Below are positions 1,883 to 35,647 of a stretch of DNA of 64,000 bases, piece after piece. The position numbers and the translations under genes were made by a program. Origin of the DNA: Candidatus Krumholzibacteriota bacterium. GTDB taxonomy: Bacteria; Krumholzibacteriota; Krumholzibacteriia; JACNKJ01. The notes under the pieces are model-generated. The model saw only the letters and a program-made list of their open reading frames with translations, was not told where the DNA came from and made no database searches. Location of the stretch: positions 958-64,957 of the forward strand of contig JAFGBK010000107.1 of assembly GCA_016933175.1 (NCBI GenBank). The letters are read 5' to 3'. How positions within the stretch are numbered: the stretch's first letter is position 1; each line of letters opens with the position of its first letter.

Positions 1883-3124
1883 ATGAAGCAGCCTGCCATC
1901 CTGGCGCTGTCGCTCCTGCTGCTGGCGGCGGCCGCCGCCGCCCAGGAGCCTGCGGCCGGTCAGCCCGGTGCCTTCCTGCGCTTCGGCGCGGGCGCCCGCG
2001 GTCTGGCCATGGGCGGCGCCGGCGCGGGGCTGGCCGACGACGCCGGCGCCCTCTACGCGAACCCGGCCGGCCTGGATCAGGTGCGCAGCCCCGAGCTGCT
2101 GCTGTTCCACGCCAACCTGCTGGAGGACACGCACTACGGCTTCCTGGGGCTCGTCTATCCCCTGGGGCGCCTGGGCACCCTCGGCGTGTCCGGCGTGATC
2201 CTGCAGTCGGACGGCTACGAGCGCGCCACGCTCACGGACGACCTGGGCGAGACCTTCGCGGACAGCCGCAACGCCCTGCAGCTCACCCTCGCCCGCCGCG
2301 CGGGCCCCGTGAGCGTCGGGGTCACCTACCGCCACGTCAACCAGAGCCTGGCGGGCTACAGCGGCGGCGGGGACGGCCTGGACCTGTCCCTTTTCAGCCG
2401 GCCTCTGCGCTCCCTCAGCGTCGGCCTCAGCCTGCAGAACCTGCTGGCGCCGCGCGTCACCCTCTACCAGGACGAGGAGCGTTACCCGCTCACCCTGCGC
2501 GCCGGCCTCGCCGTGCACCTGGCCGGCGGGCGCCTGCTGCCCGTGCTGGACCTGGTCCGCGTCGGCGACGCGCCGACGATCCTGCAGGCCGGCTGCGAGT
2601 ACTGGAGCTTCGGCCGCGTCGCCCTGCGCGCCGGCTGGGACACGGGGCTCAACCGCTACGCCGCCGGCGGCGGCTACCGCCACGGGCCCTGGCAGTTCGA
2701 CTACGCCGTCGCGGACACCCCCATCGGCCTCTCGCACCGTCTGAGCCTGACCTGGCGCTTCGGCCGCACGCCCCAGGGCGTGAGCATGCAGGCGAGCACG
2801 GCGCGCTTCTCGCCGAGCGGCGAGCTGAACAAGGTGGACCTCCAGCTCGAGAGCGGCCTGCGCGGCCGCGCCCAGGGCTGGGAGCTGGTGATCTACACGC
2901 CGGCGGGCGAGCCCTGCCACAGCGCCCGCGGCAGCAAGGAGCCGCCCGCGGTCTACTCCTGGGACGGCCGCGACGACCGCGGCCGCCTGGTGCCCACGGG
3001 CCGCTACCGCGTGATGATCATCGTCCTCGACGAGTTCGGCGATCCCTGGACCCAGGAGACCGTCGTCGAGATCCGCGACTACGATCCGGACCTGAAGACC
3101 CCGGTCCGGATGGAGATGCACTGA
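1883..3124 (+). CDS. PorV/PorQ-like outer-membrane beta-barrel fused to an FlgD-Ig-like domain
   Basis: GGAGG RBS at 1871-1875 and ATG at 1883. Signal peptide, then FLRFGAGARGLAMGGA and ALYANPAGL (PorV/FadL-like N-terminus). Barrel ends DYA...HRLSLTWRF, followed by RFSPSG and WDGRDDRGRLVPTGRY. Confidence 0.8.
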   Translation: MKQPAILALSLLLLAAAAAAQEPAAGQPGAFLRFGAGARGLAMGGAGAGLADDAGALYANPAGLDQVRSPELLLFHANLLEDTHYGFLGLVYPLGRLGTLGVSGVILQSDGYERATLTDDLGETFADSRNALQLTLARRAGPVSVGVTYRHVNQSLAGYSGGGDGLDLSLFSRPLRSLSVGLSLQNLLAPRVTLYQDEERYPLTLRAGLAVHLAGGRLLPVLDLVRVGDAPTILQAGCEYWSFGRVALRAGWDTGLNRYAAGGGYRHGPWQFDYAVADTPIGLSHRLSLTWRFGRTPQGVSMQASTARFSPSGELNKVDLQLESGLRGRAQGWELVIYTPAGEPCHSARGSKEPPAVYSWDGRDDRGRLVPTGRYRVMIIVLDEFGDPWTQETVVEIRDYDPDLKTPVRMEMH

Positions 3125-20803: not shown

Positions 20804-20901
20804 GACGCTGCCGAGGGACGTGACGGGAAGACCGCACATCGCTCCCGAGCCGACTTCGAAGCGGAGGCGCAGGGAGCGATGTGCGGTCTTCGTGCAGCGT
20901 C
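20804..20901. repeat. Perfect 20-bp inverted repeat with an outer 8-bp inverted repeat, between convergent genes
   Basis: GAAGACCGCACATCGCTCCC (20827-20846) pairs with 20872-20891; GACGCTGC (20804-20811) pairs with 20894-20901. Confidence 0.8.
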
Positions 20902-23900: not shown

Positions 23901-25622
23901 GTTCAGCATGCCCGTGTAGATCTCGCCCAGCCGCAGGTCCGGGTTGCTGGTGAACAGGTCGAAGAAGACGTCCTGGTACAGCGAGCTCACGGTGGGGAAG
24001 GTCTCGCGCGTCGAGCCGATGACCGCGAAGGCGCCGCCGCTGTCATGGAAAAGGAAGGACTCCGCGAGGCAGTTGAAATCGAAGGCCGCCGCCGTGCAGT
24101 TGACCATGTAGAGCAGGAAGGTCCGGTCGCCGTTGGGCAGGGCATTGATCATGTTCGACGTGATGCTGCCGTTGGCGACGCTCATGGTCTGCCGCATGCC
24201 GTGGCCGTGGTGGACGACGATGTTCTGCCCCGCACCCATGGAGTCCAGCGCGGCCTGGACGCTCAGCGGCTCGCAGCCGGGGTAGTCGGCCGTGTTCTCG
24301 TAGAGGCGCGTGACGTCCTGGTCGGGCCCCATGTACTTCACGTAGAGCGACTCGCAGTACTCCGCCCCGTCGATGGTGATGTTGGGATTGGTGGGATAGT
24401 CCAGGGGGAAGAGCACCTCGCCCAGGAGTAGGACCCGGTTCTGGTAGGGAGCGGCGGTGCCCTGCATGTACGTTTCGCTCTTGGTCAAGATGGCCGCGAC
24501 CTCGTCCCGCGTGCCGGCGGGCAGGCGGCCGACGATGACCTCGGGCAGGAGGTCCGTCTCGTCGCCCCAGTCGCCGATGGCGGTGTCCGCATCCTCGGCC
24601 CAGAAGGCGTTGTGGTTGGCGTTCCAGTCGCCGTCCAGGCAGCCGAAGTAGAGGTCCGAGGGCGACTCGCGCGGATCGAAGAAGATGTCGGTGTAGACCA
24701 TGCGCGAGGGGATCTGCTCCACATCGGCCACGATGAGCAGGAAGCGCAGCGACCACTTCTCGTAGGCGTCGACGACGAAGTTCCGAACCAGCTCGGCGCG
24801 GTCGCTGCCGAAGGGGTAGCGCTGCTCGATCCACTCCAGCGTGCGCACGACCGTCGGCAGGCCGTAGGAGGTCTTCAGATCGGCGTAGCCCGCGCAGAGG
24901 TCCGCGAAGGAGTCCACGGTGACGATGACCATTTCCACGGCGCTGCCCTCGATGCTGGGCACCTCGGTGGGGAAGTCGCCGCCGCCGGCCGCCCGCGGCA
25001 CCGCGGGCGGCAGCGATCCGGGATTGAGCAGGCCCGCGCCGAGGGAGGCGAGGATGCGCTCGTGCAGGGGAAAATCCGGGCGCAGAGGAGTCCGCGCGGT
25101 CGCCGGCCCGTCGAAGTCGGTGACCAGGCGCAGGCGCGCGCCGCGCAGGACCAGCAGGCGGCCCGCCTCGGCGCGCAGGGGCGTCAGGGCCAGGGCCTGG
25201 AAGCTCCGCCCGTGCAGGTGGCGCGGCGGCGAGAGCTGCAGGGGATAGTCAGCGAACCAGAGGGGCCCTTCGCCGGCGCCACGGACAGCGCTGCCTTCGG
25301 AACCGCGCAGGGGCAGACGGCGCGGCGCGCGCGACAGCTCGGCCACCGGCGCCTCATCGACATCCACCAGGCTGGCGGCGACGATGCGCTCGCCCGGCGC
25401 CAGGGCCCACCACCAGGTGAGCGTGGGCGCCAGGGCCCGGTCGGCTCCGGGATCGGCCAGGACGTCGGCGAGCCACCGCCCCACGGCGGTCTGCGGATCG
25501 CGGGCCTCATCCAGAGGCAGCGCGACCTCGTGGACCGCGGCGCCGGCCGGGAGGGCGGTCGCGAGAAACAGGCTGGCGAGCAGGAGCGGGAACAGGCGCT
25601 TCGGGCGTCGGGTGCGTGACAT
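20901..25622 (-). CDS. Gingipain-like C25 cysteine peptidase with Ig/FN3, FG-GAP repeats and FlgD-Ig CTD (paralog 1, 1573 aa)
   Basis: Signal peptide; C25 motifs SDLYFGCLDG, VGRLP, HHGHG and MVNC; repeats SPA(I/L)GDVDGDG; C-terminal NWPNPFNP...WQGRD...ASGIYF...RKLTLLK. Confidence 0.88.
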   Translation of the reverse strand: MSRTRRPKRLFPLLLASLFLATALPAGAAVHEVALPLDEARDPQTAVGRWLADVLADPGADRALAPTLTWWWALAPGERIVAASLVDVDEAPVAELSRAPRRLPLRGSEGSAVRGAGEGPLWFADYPLQLSPPRHLHGRSFQALALTPLRAEAGRLLVLRGARLRLVTDFDGPATARTPLRPDFPLHERILASLGAGLLNPGSLPPAVPRAAGGGDFPTEVPSIEGSAVEMVIVTVDSFADLCAGYADLKTSYGLPTVVRTLEWIEQRYPFGSDRAELVRNFVVDAYEKWSLRFLLIVADVEQIPSRMVYTDIFFDPRESPSDLYFGCLDGDWNANHNAFWAEDADTAIGDWGDETDLLPEVIVGRLPAGTRDEVAAILTKSETYMQGTAAPYQNRVLLLGEVLFPLDYPTNPNITIDGAEYCESLYVKYMGPDQDVTRLYENTADYPGCEPLSVQAALDSMGAGQNIVVHHGHGMRQTMSVANGSITSNMINALPNGDRTFLLYMVNCTAAAFDFNCLAESFLFHDSGGAFAVIGSTRETFPTVSSLYQDVFFDLFTSNPDLRLGEIYTGMLNNFEPETLEGGGYRWAHTSHTLLADPSNWLHWTLLDSLAIETPPTHVAGSGPLVVTITDRVSLLPRPGAQVTLRRGDEDYLRGVTDTAGQVEFAPNPETGGRYQIRVTARDATPVNGTVDVLAPSGEPLLSAALVAVDDVADGTVAGNGNGVPERGEIVRLTITLQNNGTFWASNTGAVLRCADPAVTVLDSTDTYGTILAGNTSDGGDPYLVQLGDVADDAILPFTLSITCTEVTTEDDFYLEAAAPLLALYRTELDDTAQGDGDGDLEEGEAAAVGISLANYGRATAPDVTATIEPTAGSSLTVTQGVAVLGDLDSLSLGLGPALFEVSRGGPEPPELLLVLADGLGHSDSLTMLLARPAAPATELSSEYGSDASRVIIDWTPPGSEDAYAYIVLRAAEAGGPYAEISTHWMRSCTYEDEGLDTFTQYWYRVQTLSAAGLTGVLSDSLKVTTNVPQLLGWPQRLYEWTAGTPVVADFTGDGRNELLVGADVIYAFHPDGTELADGDGDPYTHGPLITDGHNYINCSLTAANVIPGRAGVELIGGSWDTAEIYVWEINGTGISIEATVAPGWPRSIAHSYGIYGTPSVADVDGDSDMEIFASDVGGHLLAWHHDGTELIDGDNNPLTQGVFATGLGGWLRSTCAFGDVDGDRANEIFICSMTGYLYAWHADGTLVDGFPFDTGMEMYCSPAIGDVDGDGLPEIVFPAENDSLYVLDHDGSRHPGWPVYWFNNNWGLAPSPALADLTGDGYPEIFVCGVHNNEHMDVAWFDADGTLLPGWPRTTSHYTVASPSVADVDGDGDFEVFVANEDALIEAWHHDGTPVDGFPLGADDFLRTTPTFVDFDGNGQLDMIVAGWDLYVRIWEFPVLYDPAATPWYTFQHDATRSGNYDAIDWVVDVAEEDLPPGVVRLDRNWPNPFNPKTHIRFTLTGEGQRPVRLSIHDVRGRLVAKLVDEALPAGTYVQSWQGRDDSARAVASGIYFARLQVDSQVETRKLTLLK

Positions 25623-25683
25623 CGATCCGTCCTTCTCAGGATGAGGGGGAAAGAACCACTCCATAACTCTACAGGGGAGTATA

Positions 25684-25713
25684 ATTTTACCATGCCCGGC
25701 GGCAGGCCGCCAA
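25684..25713 (-). promoter_or_regulatory. Extended -10 promoter of C25 paralog 1
   Basis: TTGGCG (25713-25708), 18-nt spacer, TGg-TAAAAT (25689-25684). Confidence 0.5.
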
Positions 25714-25748
25714 CGTCCGGTTGCCGCGAGGCCTTTCTTTACGGGGAA

Positions 25749-26528
25749 TTACAGGCCGCGACGTGCCTTTTCCAGGAACTCGCGCTCCTCGCGCGTCAGG
25801 GAGCCCAGGCCTTCCCGGTTCACCTTGTCGAGGATCTCGTCCACGCGGCGGCGCAGGGCGCGCTGGCGCTCGATGTCGCGGCGCCGGCGCCGTCCCTCGA
25901 GGTCGACGAAGGAGCGCCGGTACCAGCCCGTCTTCATCAGCACGTAGCCCGAGGCGAGGCCGCCGATGTGGGCCAGGTGGGCGATGCTCCCGCCCCCCTG
26001 GATGGCGCCGAAGATGTCCAGGGCCGCCACCAGCCAGACGAAGTAGCGCACCTTCATGGGGATGATCAGGAAGGCCAGGATGATGCGGTCCGGGAAGAGG
26101 ACCCCGTAGGCCGCCAGGACGCCCAGGACCGCGCCGCTGGCGCCCAGGATGAGGGCCTTCCACATGAACAGGCTGCAGAGACCCGCCACCAGGCCCGAGA
26201 CCAGGTAGAGGCGCAGGAAGGCGCGCCGGCCGATGGTCATCTCGACCTCGCGGCCGAACATCCACAGCACGAACATGTTGAACAGGATGTGGAGAAAGCC
26301 CCCGTGCAGGAACATGTAGGTGAAGATCTGCCAGACCATGCCCCGCATGAATCCCGTCGCGGGCTGCAGCGCGAACAGCATCAGGAACGACTGGTAGAAG
26401 CGCGTCCGCATGAGGACGAGCTGGACGACGAAGATCAGCCCGTTGATGGCCAGCAGGCGCAGGGTCCAGGGATAGGGGCTGTCGCCGAAGGGCAGGGGAT
26501 CGCGCCGCCCGCCGCCGTAGTAGCTCAC
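25749..26528 (-). CDS. Rhomboid family intramembrane serine protease with a short cytoplasmic C-terminal domain
   Basis: WQIFTYMFLHGG..HILFNM, GASG (catalytic Ser), AHLAHIGG (His); tail VDEILDKVNREGLGSLT; GTG at 26528. Confidence 0.92.
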   Translation of the reverse strand: MSYYGGGRRDPLPFGDSPYPWTLRLLAINGLIFVVQLVLMRTRFYQSFLMLFALQPATGFMRGMVWQIFTYMFLHGGFLHILFNMFVLWMFGREVEMTIGRRAFLRLYLVSGLVAGLCSLFMWKALILGASGAVLGVLAAYGVLFPDRIILAFLIIPMKVRYFVWLVAALDIFGAIQGGGSIAHLAHIGGLASGYVLMKTGWYRRSFVDLEGRRRRRDIERQRALRRRVDEILDKVNREGLGSLTREEREFLEKARRGL

Positions 26529-27046
26529 GTGTCGAACCTCGCGCCGAAGGTGATGAGCAGCCCCGAACCGGTGAAGCTGCCGCCCGAGTACTCCAGGGCC
26601 CGGTTGACGAACAGGGCCTGGAGGAGCCACCGCTCGCCCAGGCGCCATTCCAGGCCGGCCTCGAGGGTGGCCGTCCAGCGGGAGGCGTGCTCGCCGCCCG
26701 CGGACCACCAGAGCCCGTGCTGCCCGAAGCCGCCGGCCACGAACCAGCGACGCGGTCCCCGCTCCAGCAGGTAGCGGCGCAGACTCAGCTCGGCGCCCTC
26801 GATATGGCCGACGCCGTCGGCCACGATGCGGTTGTAGCGCACCGCCAGGCCGAAGCGGCGCGCCGCCAGACCCCGGGAGAGCCCGGCCAGGTCCGCGGGC
26901 TCGAACAGGCCCTCGGCGCTGGCGCCCCAGGCCGCGTGGCTCGCGTCGTAGAGGTAGAAGGCGTCGCCGCCCAGGCTGTAGGCCATCGCGCCGGCGGCGA
27001 CGGGCGAGGCGAGGACCGCCGCGACCAGCAGGGCGGCCGCCCTCAC
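26525..27046 (-). CDS. Small exported protein, probable outer-membrane beta-barrel
   Basis: Signal peptide, alternating hydrophobic beta-strand pattern, C-terminal ITFGARF-DT; coupled by 4-nt overlaps on both sides. Confidence 0.55.
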   Translation of the reverse strand: MRAAALLVAAVLASPVAAGAMAYSLGGDAFYLYDASHAAWGASAEGLFEPADLAGLSRGLAARRFGLAVRYNRIVADGVGHIEGAELSLRRYLLERGPRRWFVAGGFGQHGLWWSAGGEHASRWTATLEAGLEWRLGERWLLQALFVNRALEYSGGSFTGSGLLITFGARFDT

Positions 27047-27978
27047 GGCCCGCCGCCCCGCCAGAGGAGGGCCAGCCGGTGCTCCGAGCCGGGTCCCTCG
27101 CCGCCGTCGAAGGCGGCGCCGTAGTCCAGGCGGAAGGCGCCGAGGCCCAGGCCGAATCCCAGCGAGGGGGTCCAGCGCGCCTCCCCCAGCCCGTGCCGGG
27201 CGAGTCCACCGCGCAGAATCAGGCGGCCGGGCCACGCGTCCCACTCGGCGCCGAGGGCGATGCGCTCCCAGGTCGCGAAGCGATGACGCCCCAGGCACTC
27301 GGCCGCCACGCGCCAGGGCAGGCGCGCCGCCAGGGCGAGGACCTGGGCCGGCTCGCGGCGCCGGTCCTCGCCGCCCTCCCACCGGAAGCGGTGGTGGAGG
27401 TCCTCGGCGACGTAGCCGACCTCCAGGGCCGGGTGCAGGACCACCGCGCGCAGGCCGACGCTCAGGGAGACGGCGCGGCCGACATCGGCGCCGTCGTCGT
27501 GGCCGCCGCCGGCGAGGCTGCCGCGCGCCCCCATCGAGAGCCAGCGCATGGGGCTCCAGGCCAGGCCGCCGGCCAGGGTCCATTCGCCCCAGACCGACTC
27601 GTCGGCCAGGGTGGCGCCGAGGTACTGGAAGGCGCCGGCCGCGGCGCCCAGGCTCGTGGGCGTCCGCTCGCTCGCCAGGGGCGGACGGTGGCCGGTGCTC
27701 CAGCCCAGGACCGTCGAGGAGAGGTAGAGGTCGGGGCCGCCGCCCAGGCGGCGCAGGCTGGCGCCCACCTCCCAGCCGTCCATGCCCACCAGGGAGGCGG
27801 GCTGTGTGAACAGGGCCTCCGCGCCCGGCGCCAGCAGGGTGGCCGCGCCGCCCATGGCCAGGTCGCGCGCGCCGTGCTCCCAGAGCCGGAAGCTGCCCCC
27901 CAGCGAGCCCGCCCCGGCCGAGGGAGCCAGGAGCGCCAGCAGGCAGGCGGCCGCGAGGATGCGCCTAGTCGCGGACAA
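27043..27978 (-). CDS. PorV/PorQ-like outer-membrane beta-barrel
   Basis: FRLWEHGARDLAMGGA, ALFTQPASL and LDYGAAF...HRLALLW motifs; probable TTG start at 27978. Confidence 0.78.
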   Translation of the reverse strand: MSATRRILAAACLLALLAPSAGAGSLGGSFRLWEHGARDLAMGGAATLLAPGAEALFTQPASLVGMDGWEVGASLRRLGGGPDLYLSSTVLGWSTGHRPPLASERTPTSLGAAAGAFQYLGATLADESVWGEWTLAGGLAWSPMRWLSMGARGSLAGGGHDDGADVGRAVSLSVGLRAVVLHPALEVGYVAEDLHHRFRWEGGEDRRREPAQVLALAARLPWRVAAECLGRHRFATWERIALGAEWDAWPGRLILRGGLARHGLGEARWTPSLGFGLGLGAFRLDYGAAFDGGEGPGSEHRLALLWRGGGP

Positions 27979-29683
27979 TGGCGACCACCTTTCGCTCGTA
28001 GCGCGCCTCCCCCTGGACGGGATCGATGCGGACATTGACGACATAGAGCCCGTCGAGCAGCTCGCGCCCCCCGTCGTCGCGCAGGTCCCAGTCCGCGGCG
28101 AACTCGCGTGGGCCGCCGGCGGCGTCGATGACGCGCACGAGGCCGCCGGTCAGCGTGTAGACGCGCAGGGTGACGGACGCCGCGTCCTCGGCCGTGTTGA
28201 TCTGGATGGTCTCGCCCGGGCGGCCGCGCAGGCGGCCGGGGATGACCAGGGCCGGCCTGGGCCGGTAGGTGACGCTCAGCGCCGCTGACGGCGGCGAGAG
28301 GTTGCCCGTCGCGTCCACGCCGCGCGCCGTCCAGTCGTGCGTGCCCTCGCTGAGGGTGACGTAGGCGCTGAAGACGCCCGAGGGGCTGACGGCCACGGTC
28401 TGGCGCTCGACGCCGTCCTCGTAGAGGATGGCGTCGATGCCCGCCTCGGCGCAGGTGCCGGCCAGCTGGGCCACCTGCTGGATGTAGGTGGTGGTGGCCG
28501 TCGTCCAGACCGGCGCGGGCGGCGCGACGCCGTCCACGCGGACGGTCAGGCCGAGCACGCTGCCGTGGTCCCGCGTCCAGAGGCCGGCCTCGTCGCGGGC
28601 ATCGAGGCGGATGCGGTAGGTGCCGTCCACCAGCGTGCTGTCCCCCACCCAGGCGGCCGGCCGCGGCACGAGCGGCACGGCGAAGTCGGTGGAATCCGGC
28701 GCGGCGCCGGGCAGGCGCAGGGCGAGGGAGTCGAACTCCCCGCCGGCCTCCCAGGCCACGCGGCAGGAGTCCACGGCCTGGCGGTCCGTGGCGCGCACCA
28801 GCAGCGTGTCCGGCAGCGAGTCGGGGTGGAACCAGAAGGTCGTGCCGCCCGCCGCACCGCCGAAGTCCAGAACCGACAGCACCGGCGCCGCCGTGTCGAG
28901 GTCGAGGTTGACCAGCGTCGTGTCGGCGGGATTGCCCGCGTCGTCCTCCAGGCGCAGTCGGGCGCGGTAGAGCCCGTCGACGATGGCATCCTCGCCGTCG
29001 CGTCCGTCCCAGAGCAGGCGCATGCGCGGCACGCCGCCGGTGAACTGGTAGTACCCGGCGTCGCGCCCGACCAGGGCCACCTCGTCCCAGGTGCCGTCCG
29101 CCGGGTCGCGCCGCTCCAGGCGCGCCGTGGCCGTGTCCGTCAGGGTGTCGAAGTCCTCGGAGGTGAAGAAGAGCTGCAGGATCGTGTCGGCCCCGGCCGC
29201 CGTCGGCGTGAACCAGGGCGTGGGCTCCATGGCCACGGAGTGGAAGGTGGGGCCGGCGGTGCTGATCTCGAGCTGGATGGCCGGGTCCTGCCAGAGCGTG
29301 TCCGCGCCGGCGCGCGCGAAGGCGTGCAGGTAGTAGAAGCCGTCGGCCAGCGGCGCCTCGTACTGGTCGTCGCCGTTCCATCCGCACACGATGGTGAATG
29401 TGGTGGCCATGGCTCCGGCGGCGCTGGAGTCCGCCAGGACGACCAGCAGGTCCGCTGGGACCGGCGGGATGTCGGCCGTCGAATAGATGGCAGCATAGAC
29501 GGAGTCCACCACCGTCTCGCCACCACGGGCGGTGACGGTGATCGGGCACGTGTCCTGACTCCCGTCGCCGTTGGGCGAGAAGGCGCGGTCGTAGGAGAGC
29601 TGGAGCTCCAGGGCTCCGGCCGGCGCGGCCACGACGGCCGCGGCGATGGCGAGGATCAGGAGCCTGATGGGCAGTCTGGCCAC
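27965..29683 (-). CDS. Exported protein of tandem FlgD-Ig-like modules with an N-terminal FSPNGDG motif
   Basis: Signal peptide from GTG at 29683; FSPNGDG at 29581-29561; repeated W(N/D)G...(L/V)DGxY modules; C-terminal RVYTLTG.LVR...WDLRDD.G..LLDGLY...RKVVAIV. Confidence 0.75.
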   Translation of the reverse strand: MARLPIRLLILAIAAAVVAAPAGALELQLSYDRAFSPNGDGSQDTCPITVTARGGETVVDSVYAAIYSTADIPPVPADLLVVLADSSAAGAMATTFTIVCGWNGDDQYEAPLADGFYYLHAFARAGADTLWQDPAIQLEISTAGPTFHSVAMEPTPWFTPTAAGADTILQLFFTSEDFDTLTDTATARLERRDPADGTWDEVALVGRDAGYYQFTGGVPRMRLLWDGRDGEDAIVDGLYRARLRLEDDAGNPADTTLVNLDLDTAAPVLSVLDFGGAAGGTTFWFHPDSLPDTLLVRATDRQAVDSCRVAWEAGGEFDSLALRLPGAAPDSTDFAVPLVPRPAAWVGDSTLVDGTYRIRLDARDEAGLWTRDHGSVLGLTVRVDGVAPPAPVWTTATTTYIQQVAQLAGTCAEAGIDAILYEDGVERQTVAVSPSGVFSAYVTLSEGTHDWTARGVDATGNLSPPSAALSVTYRPRPALVIPGRLRGRPGETIQINTAEDAASVTLRVYTLTGGLVRVIDAAGGPREFAADWDLRDDGGRELLDGLYVVNVRIDPVQGEARYERKVVAIVRD

Positions 29684-29824
29684 GTTGCCGTCCCCGTGAA
29701 GCAAGGTCTTGATTCCAAAGGCTTTCTAGGCGATCCCCGGGCGGCCTGTCAAGGTGAAAGGATTTCAGCCTCCGTCACATGCATATCACGCAATGCGAAT
29801 GTGTTGCGCGGCTCGCTAATCAAA

Positions 29825-29854
29825 TTGTAAAGAATCCGTCCGTTCTGCTATAAT
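29825..29854 (+). promoter_or_regulatory. Extended -10 sigma70 promoter for the first A-B pair
   Basis: TTGTAA (29825-29830), 18-nt spacer, TGc-TATAAT (29849-29854). Confidence 0.65.
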
Positions 29855-29953
29855 CGCTTCCAGTTGCTCCTGAACATCTTGAGCCACTACTCCTCGGGGC
29901 TCACCGTGCCTCATGGGTCCAGTCCCTGGAGTAACATCACGGGAGGTTGTCAG

Positions 29954-30601
29954 TTGAAGAAATGGTTACTGACGCCGCTGATTCTCATCTGCCTGATGGC
30001 ATCAGGCAGCGCCTACGCACAGGTTACCATCCATTATGCCGGCTTCGGGTACGAAGAAGGGGGCTTCGATTACTCGGCGCCTGGTGACACACTCTGGTTC
30101 ATCGCCGAGGTCACGGGCCTCACGACGGAAGGCGGGCCTATCCCCTTCGATCCGGATATGTACGAGTACACGATGGTCGCCGGGCCCTTCATCTCCAACG
30201 GCGAGATCGTCGAGGGCACGCTGACCACCATCGTCTACAACCTCGGCTACTACTGGATCTACCAGGACGGGTCCTTCAACGCGGACTGGGACGAGTACCC
30301 CTACGTCAGCGATCCGCCCTCCACCTTCCTGGACGGCGATCTCTGGCTGGCCGGCCCCTTCACGGACTTCATCTTCTATGTGTTCCGCGACTACGGCCTC
30401 GGCAACTACGACGGGCACATCCAGCTCAGCGAGGGCATCGCCTTACCCTACCTCGCAGAGCAGGCCTACACCTTCGGCGGTACCCTGCATCCGCCCCACG
30501 GCGGCGTCGAACCGCCCCTGGGCTACGAGTTCTACATCGACGGGGAAACCTTCGTGCCCGTTATGGCATCCACCTGGGGCGCGGTCAAGGCCCTCTACTA
30601 G
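29954..30601 (+). CDS. Exported acidic protein A1 with C-terminal TWxxVKxLY motif
   Basis: GGGAGG RBS, TTG start at 29954, signal peptide; ends VPVMASTWGAVKALY. Confidence 0.8.
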   Translation: MKKWLLTPLILICLMASGSAYAQVTIHYAGFGYEEGGFDYSAPGDTLWFIAEVTGLTTEGGPIPFDPDMYEYTMVAGPFISNGEIVEGTLTTIVYNLGYYWIYQDGSFNADWDEYPYVSDPPSTFLDGDLWLAGPFTDFIFYVFRDYGLGNYDGHIQLSEGIALPYLAEQAYTFGGTLHPPHGGVEPPLGYEFYIDGETFVPVMASTWGAVKALY

Positions 30602-30625
30602 CAGGAACAGCGAAGGAGAGACAGC

Positions 30626-31264
30626 ATGAGAAAGGTTTTCTTCATCACGGTGCTCCTCCTCCTGGTTGCCGCCGTGCCGGCCCTGGCCGACTCCTACAAC
30701 ATCCTGAAGGAGGGCTTCAGCTTCTTCGAGGGCAGCACCGTCGGCGCCATCGGCCGGCTCGAGCCCCTGCAGACGCAGAACCCCCCGATCAACTGGGACT
30801 TCGACAGCTACGAGGTGACCTGGGCGCTGCTGGACATGACGGTCGTCGCGGAAACTCCCATGGGGCCCTTCATCCAGTACGAGCTGGAAGGCGGCACCGT
30901 GGCCCTCTACGAGGACCCGCTCATGGATCTGGACTACGGTGACTACCCCGCCGACGGCATCCCCACGGCGACCAACGGCACCGTGGCCCTGTCCGGAGAC
31001 GTCGTGTCGGCCATCCTCCTGTTCAGCACCATGACCGAGACGGGCAACTTCGACGGCACCATGTTCTTCACGGGCGGCAGCCGCTACCCCGAGCTGGAGG
31101 CCCTGGGCATCGGCCTGTTCGAGTGGCTGATCTTCGACGGCGTCAGCGCCGATGAAGCCGTGGGCGTGCCGCCGGGATACCATTCTCGGTTCGCGGGCCG
31201 CTTCTACACGCTGACGACGCCCGTGGACGACACGACCTGGACGAAGGTGCGTTCGCTCTACTAG
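30626..31264 (+). CDS. Exported acidic protein B1 with C-terminal TWxxVRxLY motif
   Basis: Signal peptide; ends TPVDDTTWTKVRSLY. Confidence 0.85.
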   Translation: MRKVFFITVLLLLVAAVPALADSYNILKEGFSFFEGSTVGAIGRLEPLQTQNPPINWDFDSYEVTWALLDMTVVAETPMGPFIQYELEGGTVALYEDPLMDLDYGDYPADGIPTATNGTVALSGDVVSAILLFSTMTETGNFDGTMFFTGGSRYPELEALGIGLFEWLIFDGVSADEAVGVPPGYHSRFAGRFYTLTTPVDDTTWTKVRSLY

Positions 31265-31337
31265 ACGATCGCGCCAAAGTGACACGGGGGCGTGACAATG
31301 CTCCCGGCTCGAGATGTTCCTTGCTCTCAGGCAGATG

Positions 31338-31372
31338 GACGGACTCCCTCGCGCGAGGGAGTCCGTCTCTTT
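31338..31372 (+). terminator. Intrinsic terminator after B1
   Basis: Perfect 13-bp stem GACGGACTCCCTC / GAGGGAGTCCGTC, GCGC loop, followed by TCTTT. Confidence 0.8.
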
Positions 31373-31374
31373 CG

Positions 31375-31403
31375 TTGAGAAAAATTATGGACCCTGCTAT
31401 ACT
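31375..31403 (+). promoter_or_regulatory. Extended -10 sigma70 promoter for the second A-B pair
   Basis: TTGAGA (31375-31380), 17-nt spacer, TGc-TATACT (31398-31403). Confidence 0.7.
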
Positions 31404-31505
31404 GCATTGCGACTCGCAACACAACCAACGCGAGCATCCACTGCGACGGGTGCATCCGGCCAGAGAGGGCGCCCCGGCAGGTGGACTCAACCGGGAGGTC
31501 GTCAG

Positions 31506-32168
31506 TTGAAGAGACTGTTACTGGCACCGCTGCTTCTGTGCGCGCTGCTGCTATGGGCGTCTCCGCTTCTCGCACAGACCGATGACATCTTCATCCACTT
31601 CGCGGGCAACGGGCTCGAGGAAGGCGGATTCGACTGGTCCGATCCGGGCGACGAGCTGAACGTCATCGCCATCGTCACCAACGTCGAGTATCCGCCGGAG
31701 CTGAGCATCCCCTACAACCCCGACTACGAGTACACGCTGGTCGTGACGGGCCTCATCTCCAACGGCGAGATCGTGGAGAGCGGCGCCTCGACCATCGTCT
31801 ACAACCTGGGCGGCTTCGCCATCTACGAGGACACGTCGCCCGACGCGTCCTGGGACGAGTACCCCATCGTGGGCACGCCGCCCGCCTCCTTCGCGGACGG
31901 CACCGTGTGGCTCAGCGGCCCCTTCACCGACTTCATCATGTGGATCGTGCGCGACTGGGCCATCGGCAACTTCGAGGGTCACATCGACCTGAGCGGCGGC
32001 TCGGCGCTCCCCTCCTTCCCCTCCACGGAGGCCTACACCTTCGGCGGCGCCCTGTGGCCGCCGCACAGCCCGACGATTCCGCCCGGCTACGACGTCTCGA
32101 TCGACGGCGAGGCCTGGGTCATCCCGACACAGGAAACCACCTGGACCAGGGTCAAGGGACTCTACTGA
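31506..32168 (+). CDS. Exported acidic protein A2 (paralog of A1) with C-terminal TWxxVKxLY motif
   Basis: Same GGGAGGT.GTCAG-TTG start context as A1; aligns with A1 throughout; ends IPTQETTWTRVKGLY. Confidence 0.8.
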   Translation: MKRLLLAPLLLCALLLWASPLLAQTDDIFIHFAGNGLEEGGFDWSDPGDELNVIAIVTNVEYPPELSIPYNPDYEYTLVVTGLISNGEIVESGASTIVYNLGGFAIYEDTSPDASWDEYPIVGTPPASFADGTVWLSGPFTDFIMWIVRDWAIGNFEGHIDLSGGSALPSFPSTEAYTFGGALWPPHSPTIPPGYDVSIDGEAWVIPTQETTWTRVKGLY

Positions 32169-32191
32169 CCCGCGCCGAAAGGAGTGACAGC

Positions 32192-32830
32192 ATGAGGAAG
32201 ACGATCATGGCAGTGCTCCTGCTGGTGCTCGCCCTGCCGGCCGTGGCCCAGGACGAGAGCGCCTACCACTTCCTGCGGGAGGGCTACGGATTCTTCACCG
32301 ACATCGCCCTGGGCGCCATCGGCAAGCTGGAACCCGTCCAGTCCGAGAATCCGCCTCTCGCCTTCGACTTCGACGCCGTCGAGGTCACCTGGGCCATGCT
32401 CGACATGGAGATCGTCTCGGAGTCGACCGTCGGCACCATGACCTTCTGGGAGCTGACCGGCGGCACCGTCGCCATCTACGAGGACCCCGCCTGCGACCTG
32501 AACTACGGCGCCTCGCCGGCCGAGGGCCTACCCACGGCCACCAACGGCACGGCGGTCCTCACCGGCCCCATCTTCCACGCCGAGATGTTCTTCAACAACT
32601 CGTCGGGGACCGGCAGCATCACGGGCGACATGGACTTCACGGGCGGCACCCGCTTCGCGGAACTCGAGGCCCTGGGGCTCGACGAGGCCGACTGGCACTT
32701 CAACGATCCCATGAGCGCCGACGCGTCCGTCCCGGCGGGCTACCACGCGCGCTGGGCCGGCCGCATCACGGGCATCCTCACCATCCCGACGGCGGACTGC
32801 ACCTGGACCCGCGTGCGGGCGCTCTACTAG
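32192..32830 (+). CDS. Exported acidic protein B2 (paralog of B1) with C-terminal TWxxVRxLY motif
   Basis: GGAG RBS, ATG at 32192; aligns with B1; ends IPTADCTWTRVRALY. Confidence 0.85.
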   Translation: MRKTIMAVLLLVLALPAVAQDESAYHFLREGYGFFTDIALGAIGKLEPVQSENPPLAFDFDAVEVTWAMLDMEIVSESTVGTMTFWELTGGTVAIYEDPACDLNYGASPAEGLPTATNGTAVLTGPIFHAEMFFNNSSGTGSITGDMDFTGGTRFAELEALGLDEADWHFNDPMSADASVPAGYHARWAGRITGILTIPTADCTWTRVRALY

Positions 32831-32867
32831 CACCGGATCAACGGCGCCGCGCCGGCGATCCGCAAGG

Positions 32868-32904
32868 AAAAACGGGGTTCCCGCCGGCGGCGGGAGCCCC
32901 GTTT
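32868..32904. terminator. Probable bidirectional terminator between B2 and the convergent peptidase gene
   Basis: AAACGGGGTTCCCG / CGGGAGCCCCGTTT stem with an A-run on the left and TTT on the right. Confidence 0.6.
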
Positions 32905-32995
32905 CGCCTCATCATCACGACCGCCGCGCCCCGGCGCCCTTCCGCGAGGCGGCGCGGCGCCTGCCAGCGCCGCGTCCCGGCGCGCCGGCCCGATC

Positions 32996-35647
32996 CTAGC
33001 GCGACACGCGCACCACGAGCACGCCGAGGTCCGCGTCCATGTCGCCAGTGAAGCGCAGGGTCACGGATCCGCCGGCCGGCGGCGCGTGCCCGGACTCCAC
33101 CTCGAAGATCAGGTAGTCCGCGGCTGTCGGGTGGACGACGTCGCCGTGGGCCGGGTCATCGAAGTAGACGGGCAGGACCGCCAGGGCCTCGCCCGGCGCG
33201 GCGCCGTAGGGGTAATCCAGGCGCAGGTTGTGGCTCGTGAACCGGTAGGCGGGGCCGAGGTCGTCGGCGAAGCCGTCGTCGTCCAGATCGCGGTCGTCCA
33301 GGTAGATGGCGGCGGCCCAGTCCTTGAAGAGCTGGGCGAAGGTCTCGCCCGTGGCCTGGGCCACGTTGGCGGCGCCTGATTCGGGGCCGCCGATCAGGGC
33401 GCCGGCCGTGGCGGCGCCGAAGCGGTCGAGCAGGTAGCGGCAGAAGAGGTAGGCCGCGCCGCGCTCGGCCAGGGCGTTGCCCCCCAGGGTGAGGCTGGTG
33501 TAGCGCGTGGCGCGCGTGTGCAGGAAGAGCTTCACGCGGCCCACGTTCTGGTCATCGTAACCGCAGAGGTTCTCGGCCAGGTGGCTGAGCCCCTCGTTGA
33601 GCCAGAGCTCCTCCTCAGGTGTGGATGGCGTACCCTGTATGATGTGCCGCTGGCCGGCGTTGATCATGTGCTGGAACTCGTGGGCGAGGATGGGCGCCAG
33701 GGCGGCGAAGGCGCCGTCCACCGTGTGGGGCACCTGGCTGAACTCGCCCGACGGATCGGGCACGAGGCCGTAGAAGATCTCGGCGTGGTTGCTGACCGGT
33801 CCGTAGAAGATGTCCAGATCCGGCGCGTAGAAGTAGCCGCCGATGTAGGCGCCCGGCGGGATGCCGGGGTCGTCGGAGAGGCTGTTGACCACGGGCGTGA
33901 GCAGGACGATGACCTTGTCGTTGTCGTCGATGTCCGAGGGAGCGCCGAAGGCCGTGACGTCCGTGAGGTAGTCCTGCTGGTCGAAGCAGTCGCCCAGCGC
34001 TTCGATCTTGAGATCGGGCACGTTCCCAACCGGCGTCGTGTCGTCCACGTAGATGATCGTGTTGGCGCCCTCGTAGCGCCTCGTCGCGTCGACCGCCTCG
34101 TGGGTGTAGCCGTAGATATCCGCCAGCACGTAGAAGGTGGCGTGCTCGTCGCTGCGCCCGCGCGGCGGCAGGGGCGGCAGGTCTCCGTCGGCGCCGAAGC
34201 CCTGGAGGGAGAGCCGCTGGCGGTGGAAGCGGGCGAGGGCGTCCTCGGCCGCCGGCTCGCCGCCGCCCATGGCCAGGGCCTGCATGGCGACGGCCCAGCT
34301 CTGGGGATCGTCGGGGCCGTCCTGGTTCAGGCTGTAGGGAATCACCGCGTAGCTCGTGCCGCTGGTTGGCACGCGGAACTCCACGTCCACCGCGCCGTGG
34401 ACGAAGGGATGGTCCTCCACCTGGCCCAGGGGCTGGGTCACCGAGACCACGAGGGGCGGGCTCGCCGACTGGCTGCCCACCGCCAGGGTCAGGTCGTGGT
34501 CCCCCTCCTCGATCTCGGCGGGGACGCGGGCCTTGAGGTGGGTCTCGGTGGCCGTGACGATGGTCATGGCCAGGCCGCCCAGGCGCAGGTCGTTGTAGGC
34601 GGGCGTCTCGCAGAAGTTATCGCCGTAGATGTCCAGCAGGTCCAGGTTGTCCACGGGCGTCGTCGGGTTGAAGTAGTCGAGCACCGGCCCGTGATCGGCA
34701 ACGGCCGCCGCGTCCACCGGATCGAGGCCCGCCGCCGTGGCGGTGAGGAGCTGGGTGCCGTGGGCGCCGCCGAGGGTCCAGGCCACGCGCAGGTTGCCGG
34801 CGCCGTCGGCCACGCCGCCGGCGGGGCTGGCGCTGCCGCCGACCGAGGCCGTGAAGGTCACGGCCGGGCCCGTCACCGGATTGCCGTAGGCGTCGTGGAC
34901 CTGGAGGGTCAGGGAGTCGGCCAGGGTGACGCTCGGCGCGTCCTTCTGGCCCACGCCCCCCACCCAGGCCAGGCTCGCCGGCGGTCCGGCCAGGGCCGTC
35001 GCCGTCATGGTCGCCGCCGTCGTGAAGCTCAGCTCTTGCCCGTAGGGCGCCACCGTGAGGGCGCCGGCCACCTCGCCGAGGGTGAGCCGCGATGCCGCGC
35101 GCCCCGCCGCGTCGGTGAGGGTGGTCTCGGGCGAGAAGGTGCCCGCGCCCGCCGTCAGGGCGAAGATCACCGCGACGCCCGGCACGACGGCGCCGCCGCC
35201 GTCCTCCACCTGGAAGACCAGGGAGTCGGCCAGCGCCGTCGCGACGGTGGCCGACTGGCCGTCGCCCGACACGGCGACCAGGCCGAAGGGCTCGCCCGCG
35301 TGAAGGGTGATGGACGGGCTGATGTTCCCGGCGGCGTCGATGGCCTGGATCATGATCTCGTCCAGGTACTCGCCCGCGATCCCGAGGCTGAAGGCGCCGT
35401 CGCTCCCGGCGGACTCGCGCACGATGACCATGCCGTCGGCGTCCAGGTTGCGCGCCTCGACGGTGGCGTCGGCCTCCACCGCGCCGGGCTCGCCCGCCAC
35501 CGTCAGCATGCCGCCGCCGGCGATGGTGATGCTGATGAGGGCGGCCACGGGCTGGGGCGGCGGCGTGATGTCCAGGAGCTGCTCCGTGGAGCAGCCGAGG
35601 GCCGCGGCCAGGGCCAGGATGGTCAGAACGCGGGTCAGTCGTCGCAC
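32996..35647 (-). CDS. Lipoprotein with Ig-like/Big_1 and IPT/TIG domains and a C-terminal HExxH zinc metallopeptidase (M30/gluzincin-like)
   Basis: Lipobox ALGC; Ig-like repeats; LAHEFQHMI and downstream WLNEGLS (third ligand Glu). Confidence 0.82.
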   Translation of the reverse strand: MRRLTRVLTILALAAALGCSTEQLLDITPPPQPVAALISITIAGGGMLTVAGEPGAVEADATVEARNLDADGMVIVRESAGSDGAFSLGIAGEYLDEIMIQAIDAAGNISPSITLHAGEPFGLVAVSGDGQSATVATALADSLVFQVEDGGGAVVPGVAVIFALTAGAGTFSPETTLTDAAGRAASRLTLGEVAGALTVAPYGQELSFTTAATMTATALAGPPASLAWVGGVGQKDAPSVTLADSLTLQVHDAYGNPVTGPAVTFTASVGGSASPAGGVADGAGNLRVAWTLGGAHGTQLLTATAAGLDPVDAAAVADHGPVLDYFNPTTPVDNLDLLDIYGDNFCETPAYNDLRLGGLAMTIVTATETHLKARVPAEIEEGDHDLTLAVGSQSASPPLVVSVTQPLGQVEDHPFVHGAVDVEFRVPTSGTSYAVIPYSLNQDGPDDPQSWAVAMQALAMGGGEPAAEDALARFHRQRLSLQGFGADGDLPPLPPRGRSDEHATFYVLADIYGYTHEAVDATRRYEGANTIIYVDDTTPVGNVPDLKIEALGDCFDQQDYLTDVTAFGAPSDIDDNDKVIVLLTPVVNSLSDDPGIPPGAYIGGYFYAPDLDIFYGPVSNHAEIFYGLVPDPSGEFSQVPHTVDGAFAALAPILAHEFQHMINAGQRHIIQGTPSTPEEELWLNEGLSHLAENLCGYDDQNVGRVKLFLHTRATRYTSLTLGGNALAERGAAYLFCRYLLDRFGAATAGALIGGPESGAANVAQATGETFAQLFKDWAAAIYLDDRDLDDDGFADDLGPAYRFTSHNLRLDYPYGAAPGEALAVLPVYFDDPAHGDVVHPTAADYLIFEVESGHAPPAGGSVTLRFTGDMDADLGVLVVRVSR

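Follow-up and report, generated by a model that had tools for sequence, protein, structure and literature searches.

The A1-B1-A2-B2 gene array

The window analyzed here, a stretch of 64,000 nucleotides from a Candidatus Krumholzibacteriota contig (JAFGBK010000107.1), contains four tandem genes on the + strand, in the order A1, B1, A2, B2. Each is preceded by a Shine-Dalgarno sequence and begins with a classical signal peptide, called heuristically from the N-terminus. A1 (29954-30601) starts with TTG behind the ribosome binding site gggagg and encodes 215 amino acids, consisting of the signal peptide MKKWLLTPLILICLMASGSAYA, a secreted beta-rich domain and a C-terminal tail. B1 (30626-31264) starts with ATG 24 nt past A1 and encodes an A homolog of 212 amino acids with the signal peptide MRKVFFITVLLLLVAAVPALA. 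A2 (31506-32168; TTG start, 220 amino acids) is a paralog of A1 with 54% identity, and B2 (32192-32830; ATG start 23 nt past A2, 212 amino acids) is a paralog of B1 with 53% identity. A promoter-like site lies 5' of the A1-B1 pair (29825-29854, + strand; 10 of 12 matches with a TG extension, a consensus match only) and another lies 5' of the A2-B2 pair (31375-31403, + strand; 10 of 12 matches). A terminator-like hairpin with a 14-bp stem and 9 GC pairs, likewise a consensus match only, stands 3' of B1 (31337-31368, + strand). The metatranscriptome runs of the source study gave no usable signal for the four genes.

A reading of this DNA from its letters alone (hereafter the sequence-only reading) described four exported proteins sharing a gap-free C-terminal tag, and the gene models, codons and alignment bear this out. 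All four C-termini fit the motif xP[VT]xx[STC]TW[GT]xV[KR]xLY-stop and align without gaps. The A1 tail, VPVMASTWGAVKALY plus stop as read from the codons (30554-30601, + strand), is the only copy near the canonical WGxIK form described below, in its R-less version. The B1 tail (TPVDDTTWTKVRSLY plus stop, 31217-31264, + strand) has diverged from G to T and from K to R, and the A2 tail (IPTQETTWTRVKGLY plus stop, 32121-32168, + strand) from G to T, while the most diverged tail, that of B2 (IPTADCTWTRVRALY plus stop, 32783-32830, + strand), is assigned by position and homology only. The otherwise invariant G is thus absent from three of the four window tails, and R replaces K in two. The register of the linker is constant in all four, with P at W-6 and [VT] at W-5 (VPVMAS-TW, TPVDDT-TW, IPTQET-TW and IPTADC-TW), and every tail terminates in LY-stop.

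Within the window, the motif is confined to these genes: a regular expression run on 551 six-frame open reading frames matches only A1, B1, A2 and B2, and a profile built from 187 independent tails finds nothing beyond the four genes among 647 window open reading frames. Against this profile A1 alone scores clearly (28.5 bits, E 3.6e-8); A2 reaches 11.4 bits (E 0.0096), and B1 (7.4) and B2 (3.0) are at noise level. The same gradation is seen with the core [ST]-W-G-x-[IV]-K-[AS]-L-Y-(R), to which A1 conforms and A2 is marginal, and from which B1 and B2 depart by T in place of G and R in place of K.

The A/B passenger domain

The homology of the A and B proteins extends from one end to the other (hhalign probability 99.5%, E 4.9e-23). 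The assertion that the tag is conserved even between these divergent types holds in so far as the tail exceeds the body in identity (7-10 of 15 residues versus 24-28%), but since A and B are full-length homologs, that conservation alone is no proof of a portable tag. Homologs of A1 fall into 18 clusters, and indels in the family alignment occur in the linker ahead of the tail. The AF2 model of A1 has a pLDDT of 81 and eight long strands, and that of B1 a pLDDT of 86; the cores lie at pLDDT 85-98, and the tails (residues 206-215 of A1 and 198-212 of B1) below 50. As modeled, the tail is outside the confident beta core of the folded domain.

A Foldseek search of PDB with the A1 model returned nothing significant (best E 0.013, TM at most 0.32), in a list headed by closed eight-stranded barrels, a sequence search of PDB was empty, and a region-restricted search of proteins, queried with the C-terminal 40 residues of A1, recovered close homologs only. 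Residues 71-139 of A2 resemble floc_PepA (NF033554) at 16 bits (E 0.008), below the curated cutoff of 80 bits, and a more distant superfamily member (L101) reaches 27.3 bits in the same profile region. Since PepA is a PEP-CTERM floc protein, this distant resemblance to its core makes a surface or matrix role plausible for A and B.

The A/B superfamily comprises 588 clusters, and tail types were read on the best 150. A strict tail is found in 97 of these 150, with 72 of the 97 starting in WG, and the WGxIK core is present in most of the others. The canonical tail also ends the proteins of eight distant loci (L006, L009, L036, L037, L043, L075, L099 and L101) that cluster and align end to end with A and B. 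About 9% of the best superfamily matches have a T9SS/FlgD C-terminal domain in place of the tail, including a Por_Secre_tail/FlgD_ig end on twelve longer relatives (up to 47.6 bits), and one member, P0176, carries a PEP-CTERM and ends in PEPASGLMAVFLIGGYFCLGRRRR. The tail thus occupies the position at which homologous passengers have a T9SS C-terminal domain or PEP-CTERM. The superfamily thereby provides a natural experiment, in which one passenger domain can be followed with three different ends: the tail, the T9SS domain and the PEP-CTERM. The pairing of A and B also recurs elsewhere, as single pairs at three loci (L121-L123) and as A-like and B-like neighbors in a member of the Fibrobacteraceae (L037).

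A portable tail on unrelated exported proteins

Pattern scans place the canonical form, P-[VT]-P-[VT]-E-x-[ST]-[ST]-W-G-x-[IV]-K-[AS]-L-Y-(R)-stop, at the extreme end of at least 190 exported proteins from about 75 unrelated families, so that the tag is not restricted to the one family from which it was first described. A scan of contigs for [ST]WGx[IV]KxLYR-stop gave at least 120 matches, against about 17 expected by chance collection-wide; a true stop ends all 136 of the matches listed, and TGG never fills the stop slot. After removal of signal peptide and tail, 107 full-length tagged proteins form 60 blastp clusters plus one cluster in which the four window proteins fall as well. The R-less form, as on A1, adds 86 further unique proteins in 24 clusters, 8 of them shared with LYR-type members. 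When conservation is scored on one representative per cluster, positions that the pattern does not force are conserved as well, namely P/A, V/T, P/A, V/T and E/D upstream and A/S at -4.

The sequence-only reading had proposed that a profile of the tail be used to look for the tag on other exported proteins, and pattern scans do find it on signal-peptide proteins with unrelated N-terminal domains, strictly at the C-terminus. A relaxed motif lies no more than 3 residues from the stop in 167 of 174 occurrences, with one to three, occasionally up to ten, residues tolerated past LY. Read from the first ATG, 71% of tagged open reading frames begin with a sequence resembling a signal peptide, compared to 10% of untagged ones. 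The tail is therefore portable across unrelated families, strictly terminal and confined to signal-peptide proteins. The tagged proteins are mostly small (median about 225 amino acids), and many are encoded singly.

Carriers with named records include 34 Eisenbacteria, 8 Fibrobacter(aceae), 6 Krumholzibacteria, 5 Latescibacteria, 3 Gemmatimonadota, 1 Zixiibacteriota and 1 Limnocylindria, the last on a 2.7-kb contig. No carriers were found among the named records of Proteobacteria, Bacteroidota (which are numerous), Firmicutes or Actinobacteria, and a search for a cultured carrier found none. The sequence-only reading placed similar ends in Latescibacteria-like phyla and Poribacteria; the former do carry the tail, but Poribacteria were not seen in the sample.

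The passengers include NCBIfam choice-of-anchor W (3 proteins, E 2e-55) and J families, cupredoxin-like proteins, and proteins with ScyF-, PepA- and ExeM-like domains; named relatives of the choice-of-anchor, ScyF-, PepA- and ExeM-like passengers carry PEP-CTERM or GlyGly-CTERM. A CxxC upstream of the tail was considered as part of the tag and rejected, being only mildly enriched (12 of 107 versus a background of 5.7%).

Comparison with known sorting signals

The view that the tail has no transmembrane segment and is not a PEP-CTERM, GlyGly-CTERM, LPXTG or T9SS C-terminal domain is upheld. Pfam and NCBIfam, searched with the four proteins, the 107 tagged proteins and the tail peptides at E up to 10, yielded no model of the tail, and searches of the accessible literature with motif strings, and for protein sorting in Eisenbacteria, found no description of the tail.

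A close parallel in placement is the type A C-terminal domain of T9SS (TIGR04183/PF18962 and the FlgD_ig-type PF13860), which is likewise portable, stands at the extreme C-terminus of Sec-exported proteins, occurs in the same genomes and neighborhoods as the tail, and replaces it on homologous passengers. That domain, however, spans 43-100 residues, folds as a beta-sandwich and contains motifs B, D and E (PMC11969387), whereas the tail is about 17 residues long, takes up no fold in the AF2 models and is not seen in Bacteroidota records. None of the C-terminal domain models matches the four window proteins, or the tail peptides at E up to 10. A likeness to the NRWG of type B domains was also considered and rejected, because the spacing differs and CHU_C has no match to the tail.

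In composition the tail resembles PEP-CTERM (TIGR02595, PF07589). Both are short C-terminal tags that open with a Pro/acidic motif (VPEP in one, P-V-P-V-E in the other), continue with S/T and hydrophobic residues and close on a basic end, and each is found on small secreted proteins encoded in arrays of tandem paralogs. The tail nevertheless has neither a transmembrane helix nor an Arg cluster; a stretch of 9 residues, K/R included, leaves no room for a membrane-spanning segment, and neither PF07589 nor TIGR02595 matches the window proteins or the tail peptides. The choice-of-anchor families (NF041928 choice_anch_W and NF038128 choice_anch_J) resemble the present case in having passengers with alternative C-terminal sorting signals, as does the A/B superfamily, and four of their members are among the tagged proteins. 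These families define the passenger and not the tag, though, and the window A/B domain matches none of them.

Two further comparisons involve membrane-associated C-termini. The terminal helices of PBP5/PBP6 and the MinD MTS are degenerate in sequence and clearly amphipathic membrane-targeting segments; they share with the tail a short terminal segment of aromatic, aliphatic and basic residues with no transmembrane span, but the tail differs in its near-invariant W-G..K..Y and its unremarkable hydrophobic moment. The beta-signal recognized by BAM in beta-barrel outer membrane proteins has a terminal aromatic residue and the pattern polar-x-G-x-x-hydrophobic-x-aromatic. It was rejected as a match, since the canonical tail ends in R, has G at -7/-8 rather than -6 and tolerates up to 10 extra residues.

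A candidate address tag for the cell envelope

From this distribution we infer that the tail may act in export or in anchoring. Probably it is a cell-envelope address tag that has not been described before, because it closes many unrelated secreted proteins, sits at the sorting-signal position of their relatives and matches no described signal. On the reading that we favor, with some reserve, the window tails are diverged, R-less copies of a widespread and portable tag of about 17 residues that is read by an envelope component for sorting to, or holding at, the envelope.

A short proline-rich linker joins the tag to the C-terminus of Sec-exported proteins in Eisenbacteria, Krumholzibacteriota, Latescibacterota, Fibrobacterota, Gemmatimonadota and allied uncultured lineages. 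In the scheme we favor, export by Sec and folding would come first. The flexible tail would then be bound by a conserved component of the envelope, be it a receptor or an enzyme of the sortase kind, which would sort the tagged protein to the cell envelope or surface or retain it there. The cargo in the window would be a conserved A-B pair of related beta-rich proteins, which tandem duplication would have turned into A-B-A-B.

What might read the tail?

The neighborhoods of tagged genes offer few clues. The only recurrent neighbors are proteins with T9SS C-terminal domains, Ser/Thr kinases with TPR, ABC ATPases and ECF sigma factors, and no consistently adjacent partner gene was found. The T9SS attachment machinery (a PorU-like C25 sortase and a PorV-like shuttle) is the leading, if weakly supported, candidate for the reader. 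The tail would then be a minimal T9SS or attachment signal that a PorV-like shuttle binds, a PorU-family C25 transpeptidase cuts, or both, and would define a short-signal class of cargo beside the FlgD-type C-terminal domain, a proposal that is a specific version of the envelope-tag explanation and that we regard as possible but doubtful.

Several observations point in this direction. The tail alternates with T9SS C-terminal domains on homologous passengers, proteins with such domains are the commonest neighbors of tagged genes (30 of 120 loci, and the immediate downstream gene in 15), and the earlier suggestion of a second cargo class beside the FlgD-type domain is a fair description, in that the tail coexists with such cargo. 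A PorU-like C25 gene lies directly downstream and co-directional at seven loci (L125, L176, L182, L164, L215, L047 and L023) and one or two genes away at two others (L244 and L089), and these neighbors match NF033707 with scores of up to 274 bits (profile positions 4-748). Almost all carriers with named records come from FCB-group phyla, where T9SS is reported (PMC12398890), and short functional signals have precedents: the last 22 residues of P. gingivalis Hbp35 are enough for secretion, and C-terminal domains of 43-55 residues are functional in P. intermedia (PMC11969387).

On the other hand, the tail is unlike motifs B, D and E and matches no C-terminal domain model at E up to 10, and it is not seen in Bacteroidota despite numerous records. 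No C25 gene lies within 10 kb of four further arrays, so that the C25 adjacency is a weak lead only; the window alone holds two C25 genes in 64 kb. Nor are the C25-adjacent loci independent, since several have the same dksA-lspA-rluD-ruvX-mltG context. A search of the literature on PorU2/PorV2 found nothing relevant. Perhaps the WGxIK tail is an unrecognized linear extracytoplasmic signal of about 17 residues, with no transmembrane helix or fold, that is handled by paralogs of the type IX attachment machinery, in which a PorU-type C25 transpeptidase would cut within the P-V-P-V-E linker and couple small proteins to the surface; we consider this possible but doubtful. If true, large FCB-group phyla would run two cargo classes, a folded C-terminal domain and a linear tail, through related machinery.

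Could the tail act without any protein reader? As a self-sufficient anchor to membrane or LPS, it would form an interfacial amphipathic helix with a W/I/L/Y face and K/R flanks that tethers small periplasmic or surface proteins, as the C-terminal helices of PBP5 or MinD do for their own, and its aromatic and basic composition, the cupredoxin-like passengers (which would need membrane proximity) and the absence of a dedicated partner gene beside tagged genes would all fit. AF2 does place a short helix of 5-6 residues in the tails (208-213 of A1 and 205-209 of B1), but at pLDDT below 50. In helical hydrophobic moment (0.28-0.52) the tails do not exceed their shuffled versions, which leaves the amphipathic helix suggested in the sequence-only reading a weak argument, and the hydrophobic core spans only 8-9 residues. 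Considering that W, G, K and Y are near-invariant and the P-V-P-V-E linker is conserved across about 75 families, specific recognition is suggested over generic membrane affinity. The restricted taxonomic range also counts against a self-anchor, which we consider improbable.

It is harder still to see the tail as something other than a sorting signal, either a structural or oligomerization element, for example in A-B pairing, or a C-terminus recognized by a periplasmic protease or by a PDZ domain of quality control. The ancient adjacency of A and B and the family-specific variants of the window tails would suit the former, and strict C-terminal placement would suit PDZ-type recognition. This is very unlikely, however, given that the identical tail type is found on about 75 unrelated families, many encoded singly, that the tail lies outside the fold, and that bona fide sorting domains replace it in homologs. 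The tolerance of extra residues after LY further argues against strict recognition of the carboxylate.

Least probable of all is recognition by the neighboring, divergently encoded PorV-like barrels (27043-28044 and 26525-27046) and by that at 1883-3124, a link raised in the original reading and one against which the sequence evidence already weighs: no barrel or rhomboid homolog occurs in 841 kb around 154 tagged genes, the 120 tagged loci yield one marginal match (E 0.004), the eight distant A/B loci named above lack both, and the likeness to PorV of the adjacent barrel (27043-28044) is marginal (16 bits versus a cutoff of 90 for PorV_fam), although the barrel at 1883-3121 is PorV/PorQ-like (87 bits). 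The block of C25, rhomboid, small barrel, barrel and FlgD protein with divergent A-B is kept in GCA_024231955.1 at about 48% identity, but barrel adjacency is found only in this close relative, which shares the whole gene order; the conservation reflects general synteny, because flanking housekeeping genes are shared too.

Significance of a probable envelope address tag

Work on LPXTG, PEP-CTERM, GlyGly-CTERM and the T9SS C-terminal domain has in every case revealed a dedicated processing enzyme and a surface-building route. The present tail marks a large share of the small secreted proteins in several abundant and entirely uncultured phyla of sediments, soils and wastewater, proteins that are currently annotated as hypothetical. 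A profile of the tail would at once improve secretome prediction for the carrier phyla, and would provide a clean handle for phylogenetic profiling toward the reader. The window tails may have drifted in function, and their divergence reveals the positions at which a tail can vary; even the W is swapped for I, M, L or F among close relatives of the window family.

Four exported proteins with a common C-terminal end

The four tandem forward-strand genes, A1 (29954-30601), B1 (30626-31264), A2 (31506-32168) and B2 (32192-32830), each carry a Shine-Dalgarno sequence and encode a protein with a classical signal peptide, the A genes starting with TTG and the B genes with ATG. Their products end in VPVMASTWGAVKALY (A1), TPVDDTTWTKVRSLY (B1), IPTQETTWTRVKGLY (A2) and IPTADCTWTRVRALY (B2), and these ends align without gaps, which confirms, with coordinates exact, an earlier sequence-only reading of four signal-peptide proteins sharing one terminus. 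A promoter-like site precedes both A1-B1 and A2-B2, the spacers within the pairs are 24 nt and 23 nt, respectively, and a strong hairpin lies 3' of B1. The GC content of the A-B-A-B region (0.64) is slightly below that of its surroundings (about 0.70-0.74). No further ORF of the window has a tail-like end, either by regular expression (551 ORFs) or by tail profile (647 ORFs). None of the four proteins matches a Pfam or NCBIfam family, the sole hint among the model searches being a weak match (E 0.008) between A2 and PepA, a PEP-CTERM floc protein, and the three metatranscriptomes of the source study gave no usable signal for the four genes. Sequence related to 29000-33500 was found in marsh, estuary and marine-sediment runs; the source resembles a sediment metagenome.

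Homologs form 18 clusters for A and 29 for B among 5.8 billion proteins, all of them unnamed metagenome proteins, and every cluster terminates in [ST][ST][W/L/M/I/F][ST/G]x[IV][KR][AS]LY. A and B align with each other as homologs over 209 columns (24% identity; hhalign probability 99.5%, E 4.9e-23). The tag had been put forward as conserved even between A and B; that conservation, at 7-10 of 15 residues, is real and far exceeds that of the body, but because the two are homologs it is no proof by itself of a portable tag. A single A-B pair is the unit in relatives (L121-L123; L-numbers denote loci from public collections with tail-bearing genes or window relatives), and the window holds a tandem duplication of it. 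These distant paralogs, 23-31 nt apart, are kept together from the window relatives through Fibrobacteraceae MAGs (window 29954-32830; L121:10001-11349; L122:247-1708; L037:3352-4814), and this retention as a unit suggests that the products form a heterodimer.

A portable terminal module

Evidence for portability comes from back-translated patterns scanned over public sequence collections. A scan of 185,579 species genomes for [ST]WGx[IV]K(AAG)xLYR-stop returned at least 136 matches, where we estimate that chance alone would give about 17 across the entire collection. The final codon is TAA, TAG or TGA in all 136 matches listed and never TGG, the fourth allowed codon; therefore the matches close real ORFs. 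When the 107 full-length LYR-type proteins among the matches listed were clustered with the window's four by single-linkage blastp, after removal of the signal peptide and the last 22 residues, 61 clusters resulted, the largest consisting of the window's four and ten canonical-tail proteins. These LYR-type proteins have diverse N-terminal domains: beta-helix, lamin-tail, NHL propeller, CHRD, cleaved-adhesin, CBM and cupredoxin. A second scan, of metagenome contigs, used the R-less pattern seen in A1 ([ST]WGx[IV]KxLY-stop). It gave at least 86 full-length proteins, all unique, which form 24 clusters; eight of these clusters also contain LYR-type members, so the terminal Arg is optional. The tail is thus not confined to one family.

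With one representative per cluster, positions left free by the pattern are also conserved, namely P/A at -17, V/T at -16, P/A at -15, V/T at -14, E/D at -13, S/T at -11 and A/S at -4. The module is about 17 residues long and reads P-[VT]-P-[VT]-E-x-[ST]-[ST]-W-G-x-[IV]-K-[AS]-L-Y-(R). Restriction to C-termini, on which the earlier reading had staked itself, was upheld: 167 of 174 occurrences of a relaxed motif in 0.9 Mb are no more than three residues away from a stop. The expected enrichment on exported proteins with unrelated N-terminal domains was likewise borne out, since a signal-peptide-like N-terminus is present in 71% of tagged and 10% of untagged ORFs, as judged from the first ATG without optimisation of the start codon.

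Named source records comprise Eisenbacteria (34), Fibrobacter(aceae) (8), Krumholzibacteria (6), Latescibacteria (5), Gemmatimonadota (3), Zixiibacteriota (1) and Limnocylindria (1, a 2.7-kb contig), with 62 other records bearing no taxon name. The dominant phyla of the collection supply none of the named records listed, and a search for a cultured carrier found none. Tail-bearing genes often stand in tandem arrays of 4-8 paralogs, with at least six on one 130-kb metagenome contig (L053/L246:8028-14229; L244:6701-12714; L177/L248:3883-11017; L170/L249:8005-10636); some arrays mix a family of about 207 aa with Big_5-domain proteins, every one with the tail.

A Cys stands just N-terminal to the linker in 62 of the 107 tagged proteins (L001-L120, residues -32 to -11 from the end), frequently as C-x(0-2)-P-[VT]-P-[VT]-E, and CxC, CxxC or CxxxC occurs in 12 of the 107, compared with 5.7% of background windows. 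Most likely this Cys belongs to a terminal disulfide in the passenger rather than to the tag. Some tails are followed by 4-10 extra residues, as in ...WGRVKALYRAQLGPDR and ...WGGIKALYGATE, and elsewhere a Trp follows LY (superfamily hits P0101, P0096, P0172 and P0119; L200, L203, L212 and L238), so that the spacing between the core and the free carboxylate varies.

The tail in place of sorting signals

Two independent results, from choice-of-anchor proteins and from the A/B superfamily, agree that the tail occupies the position of sorting signals. First, the NCBIfam choice-of-anchor families W (three proteins, E 2e-55) and J are represented among the tagged proteins, and others carry domains whose named relatives bear PEP-CTERM (ScyF, PepA) or GlyGly-CTERM (ExeM). 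Second, a profile of the A/B superfamily (A4, 36 sequences) searched against 1.84 billion representatives retrieved 588 clusters. The strict tail is kept in 97 of the best 150 of these, and most of the others among the best 150 retain the WGxIK core with variable last 3-10 residues. In twelve longer relatives the match stops at the last strand of the domain; other domains follow, and the proteins finish with Por_Secre_tail or FlgD_ig CTDs, of which several exceed the gathering threshold of Pfam. The C-terminus of one relative, P0176, is PEPASGLMAVFLIGGYFCLGRRRR, a PEP-CTERM end. One passenger is thus found with three alternative C-terminal ends. This three-way swap in one superfamily, the R-less form and the PorU-like neighbours described below are the additions of the present analysis.

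The tail itself matches no described signal: no Pfam (2025) or NCBIfam 20.0 model, including those for characterised sorting domains, was matched at E up to 10, and no paper containing the motif was found in the searchable literature.

AF2 models of A1 (m7c0c9177365f) and B1 (me45e788e1e24) have mean pLDDT values of 81 and 86, core blocks at 85-98 and eight long beta-strands each. No significant structural or sequence relative of the core was found in the PDB. Each of the weak best PDB matches is a closed eight-stranded barrel (Tsx, OmpA, OmpW, DUF3237, TTM, PsbO), and the core may have a soluble barrel or sandwich fold not described before. In both models the last 10-15 residues fall below pLDDT 50, and the linker before the tail carries indels in the family alignment; the tail is thus predicted to lie outside the A/B fold. 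The modelled tails contain only 5-6 helical residues, and their helical hydrophobic moment is not above that of shuffled tails, so the earlier amphipathic-helix argument is weak.

Sequence analysis supports, as far as it can, the proposed role of the tail in export or anchoring as a minimal signal, because the tail is portable, terminal, confined to exported proteins, outside the modelled fold and interchangeable with known sorting domains; the accompanying proposal, that the neighbouring barrels read it, is not supported.

The window's own copies have diverged. Against a profile of 187 independent tails, A1 scores 28.5 bits (E 3.6e-8), A2 11.4, B1 7.4 and B2 3.0. Three of the four have T for an otherwise invariant G and two have R for K, and close relatives have I, M, L or F even in place of the W. 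With the core drifted but the linker register (P at W-6, V/T at W-5) intact in all four, these tails are diverged, family-specific derivatives of the tag, and within the family they are still constrained. The partner that reads them may or may not be that of the canonical tag.

Candidate readers

Tagged genes have T9SS-CTD proteins beside them more often than any other neighbours (30 of 120 loci). Among these neighbours, PorU-like C25 genes lie directly downstream of, and co-directional with, tagged genes in seven loci (L125:787-7866, L176:6493-12561, L182:3000-9098, L164:6500-11535, L215:4595-9246, L047:3-5685 and L023:211-7998) and nearby in three more, L244:6662-18055 among them. The tagged genes concerned belong to at least four families. 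With the NCBIfam model T9SS_sortase the C25 proteins reach at most 274 bits, which is below its cutoff, over profile positions 4-748. Several of these loci share a dksA-lspA-rluD-ruvX-mltG-[tagged array]-C25-SpoIID-like context and are therefore probably orthologous, and no C25 gene lies within the 10-kb flanks of four further arrays (L247-L250). The PorU-like proteins are accordingly a weak lead to a tail reader. According to published work, T9SS secretion can need no more than a very short stretch of C-terminus (PMC11969387), which makes a T9SS-linked reading of the tail possible.

The earlier suggestion that PorV-like barrels next door read the tail finds no support: homologs of the window's barrels or rhomboid are absent around 154 tagged genes (841 kb), the next-door barrel (27043-28044, reverse strand) is marginally PorV-like, with 16 bits over 40 residues against PorV_fam, and its adjacency to A/B is common only to a relative sharing the entire gene order, housekeeping genes included. 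The barrel at 1883-3121 (forward strand) fits the family far better, with 87 bits for PorV_fam (cutoff 90) and matches to PorQ and the NCBIfam 'PorV2' model. In that relative, GCA_024231955.1, a five-gene block (window 20901-29704, reverse strand; L121:717-9529) is kept gene for gene, in the order C25/FG-GAP/FlgD peptidase (1587 aa), rhomboid, 173-aa protein, 333-aa barrel and 579-aa FlgD-repeat protein; for the rhomboid of this block the rhombosortase model gives 33 bits (cutoff 84).
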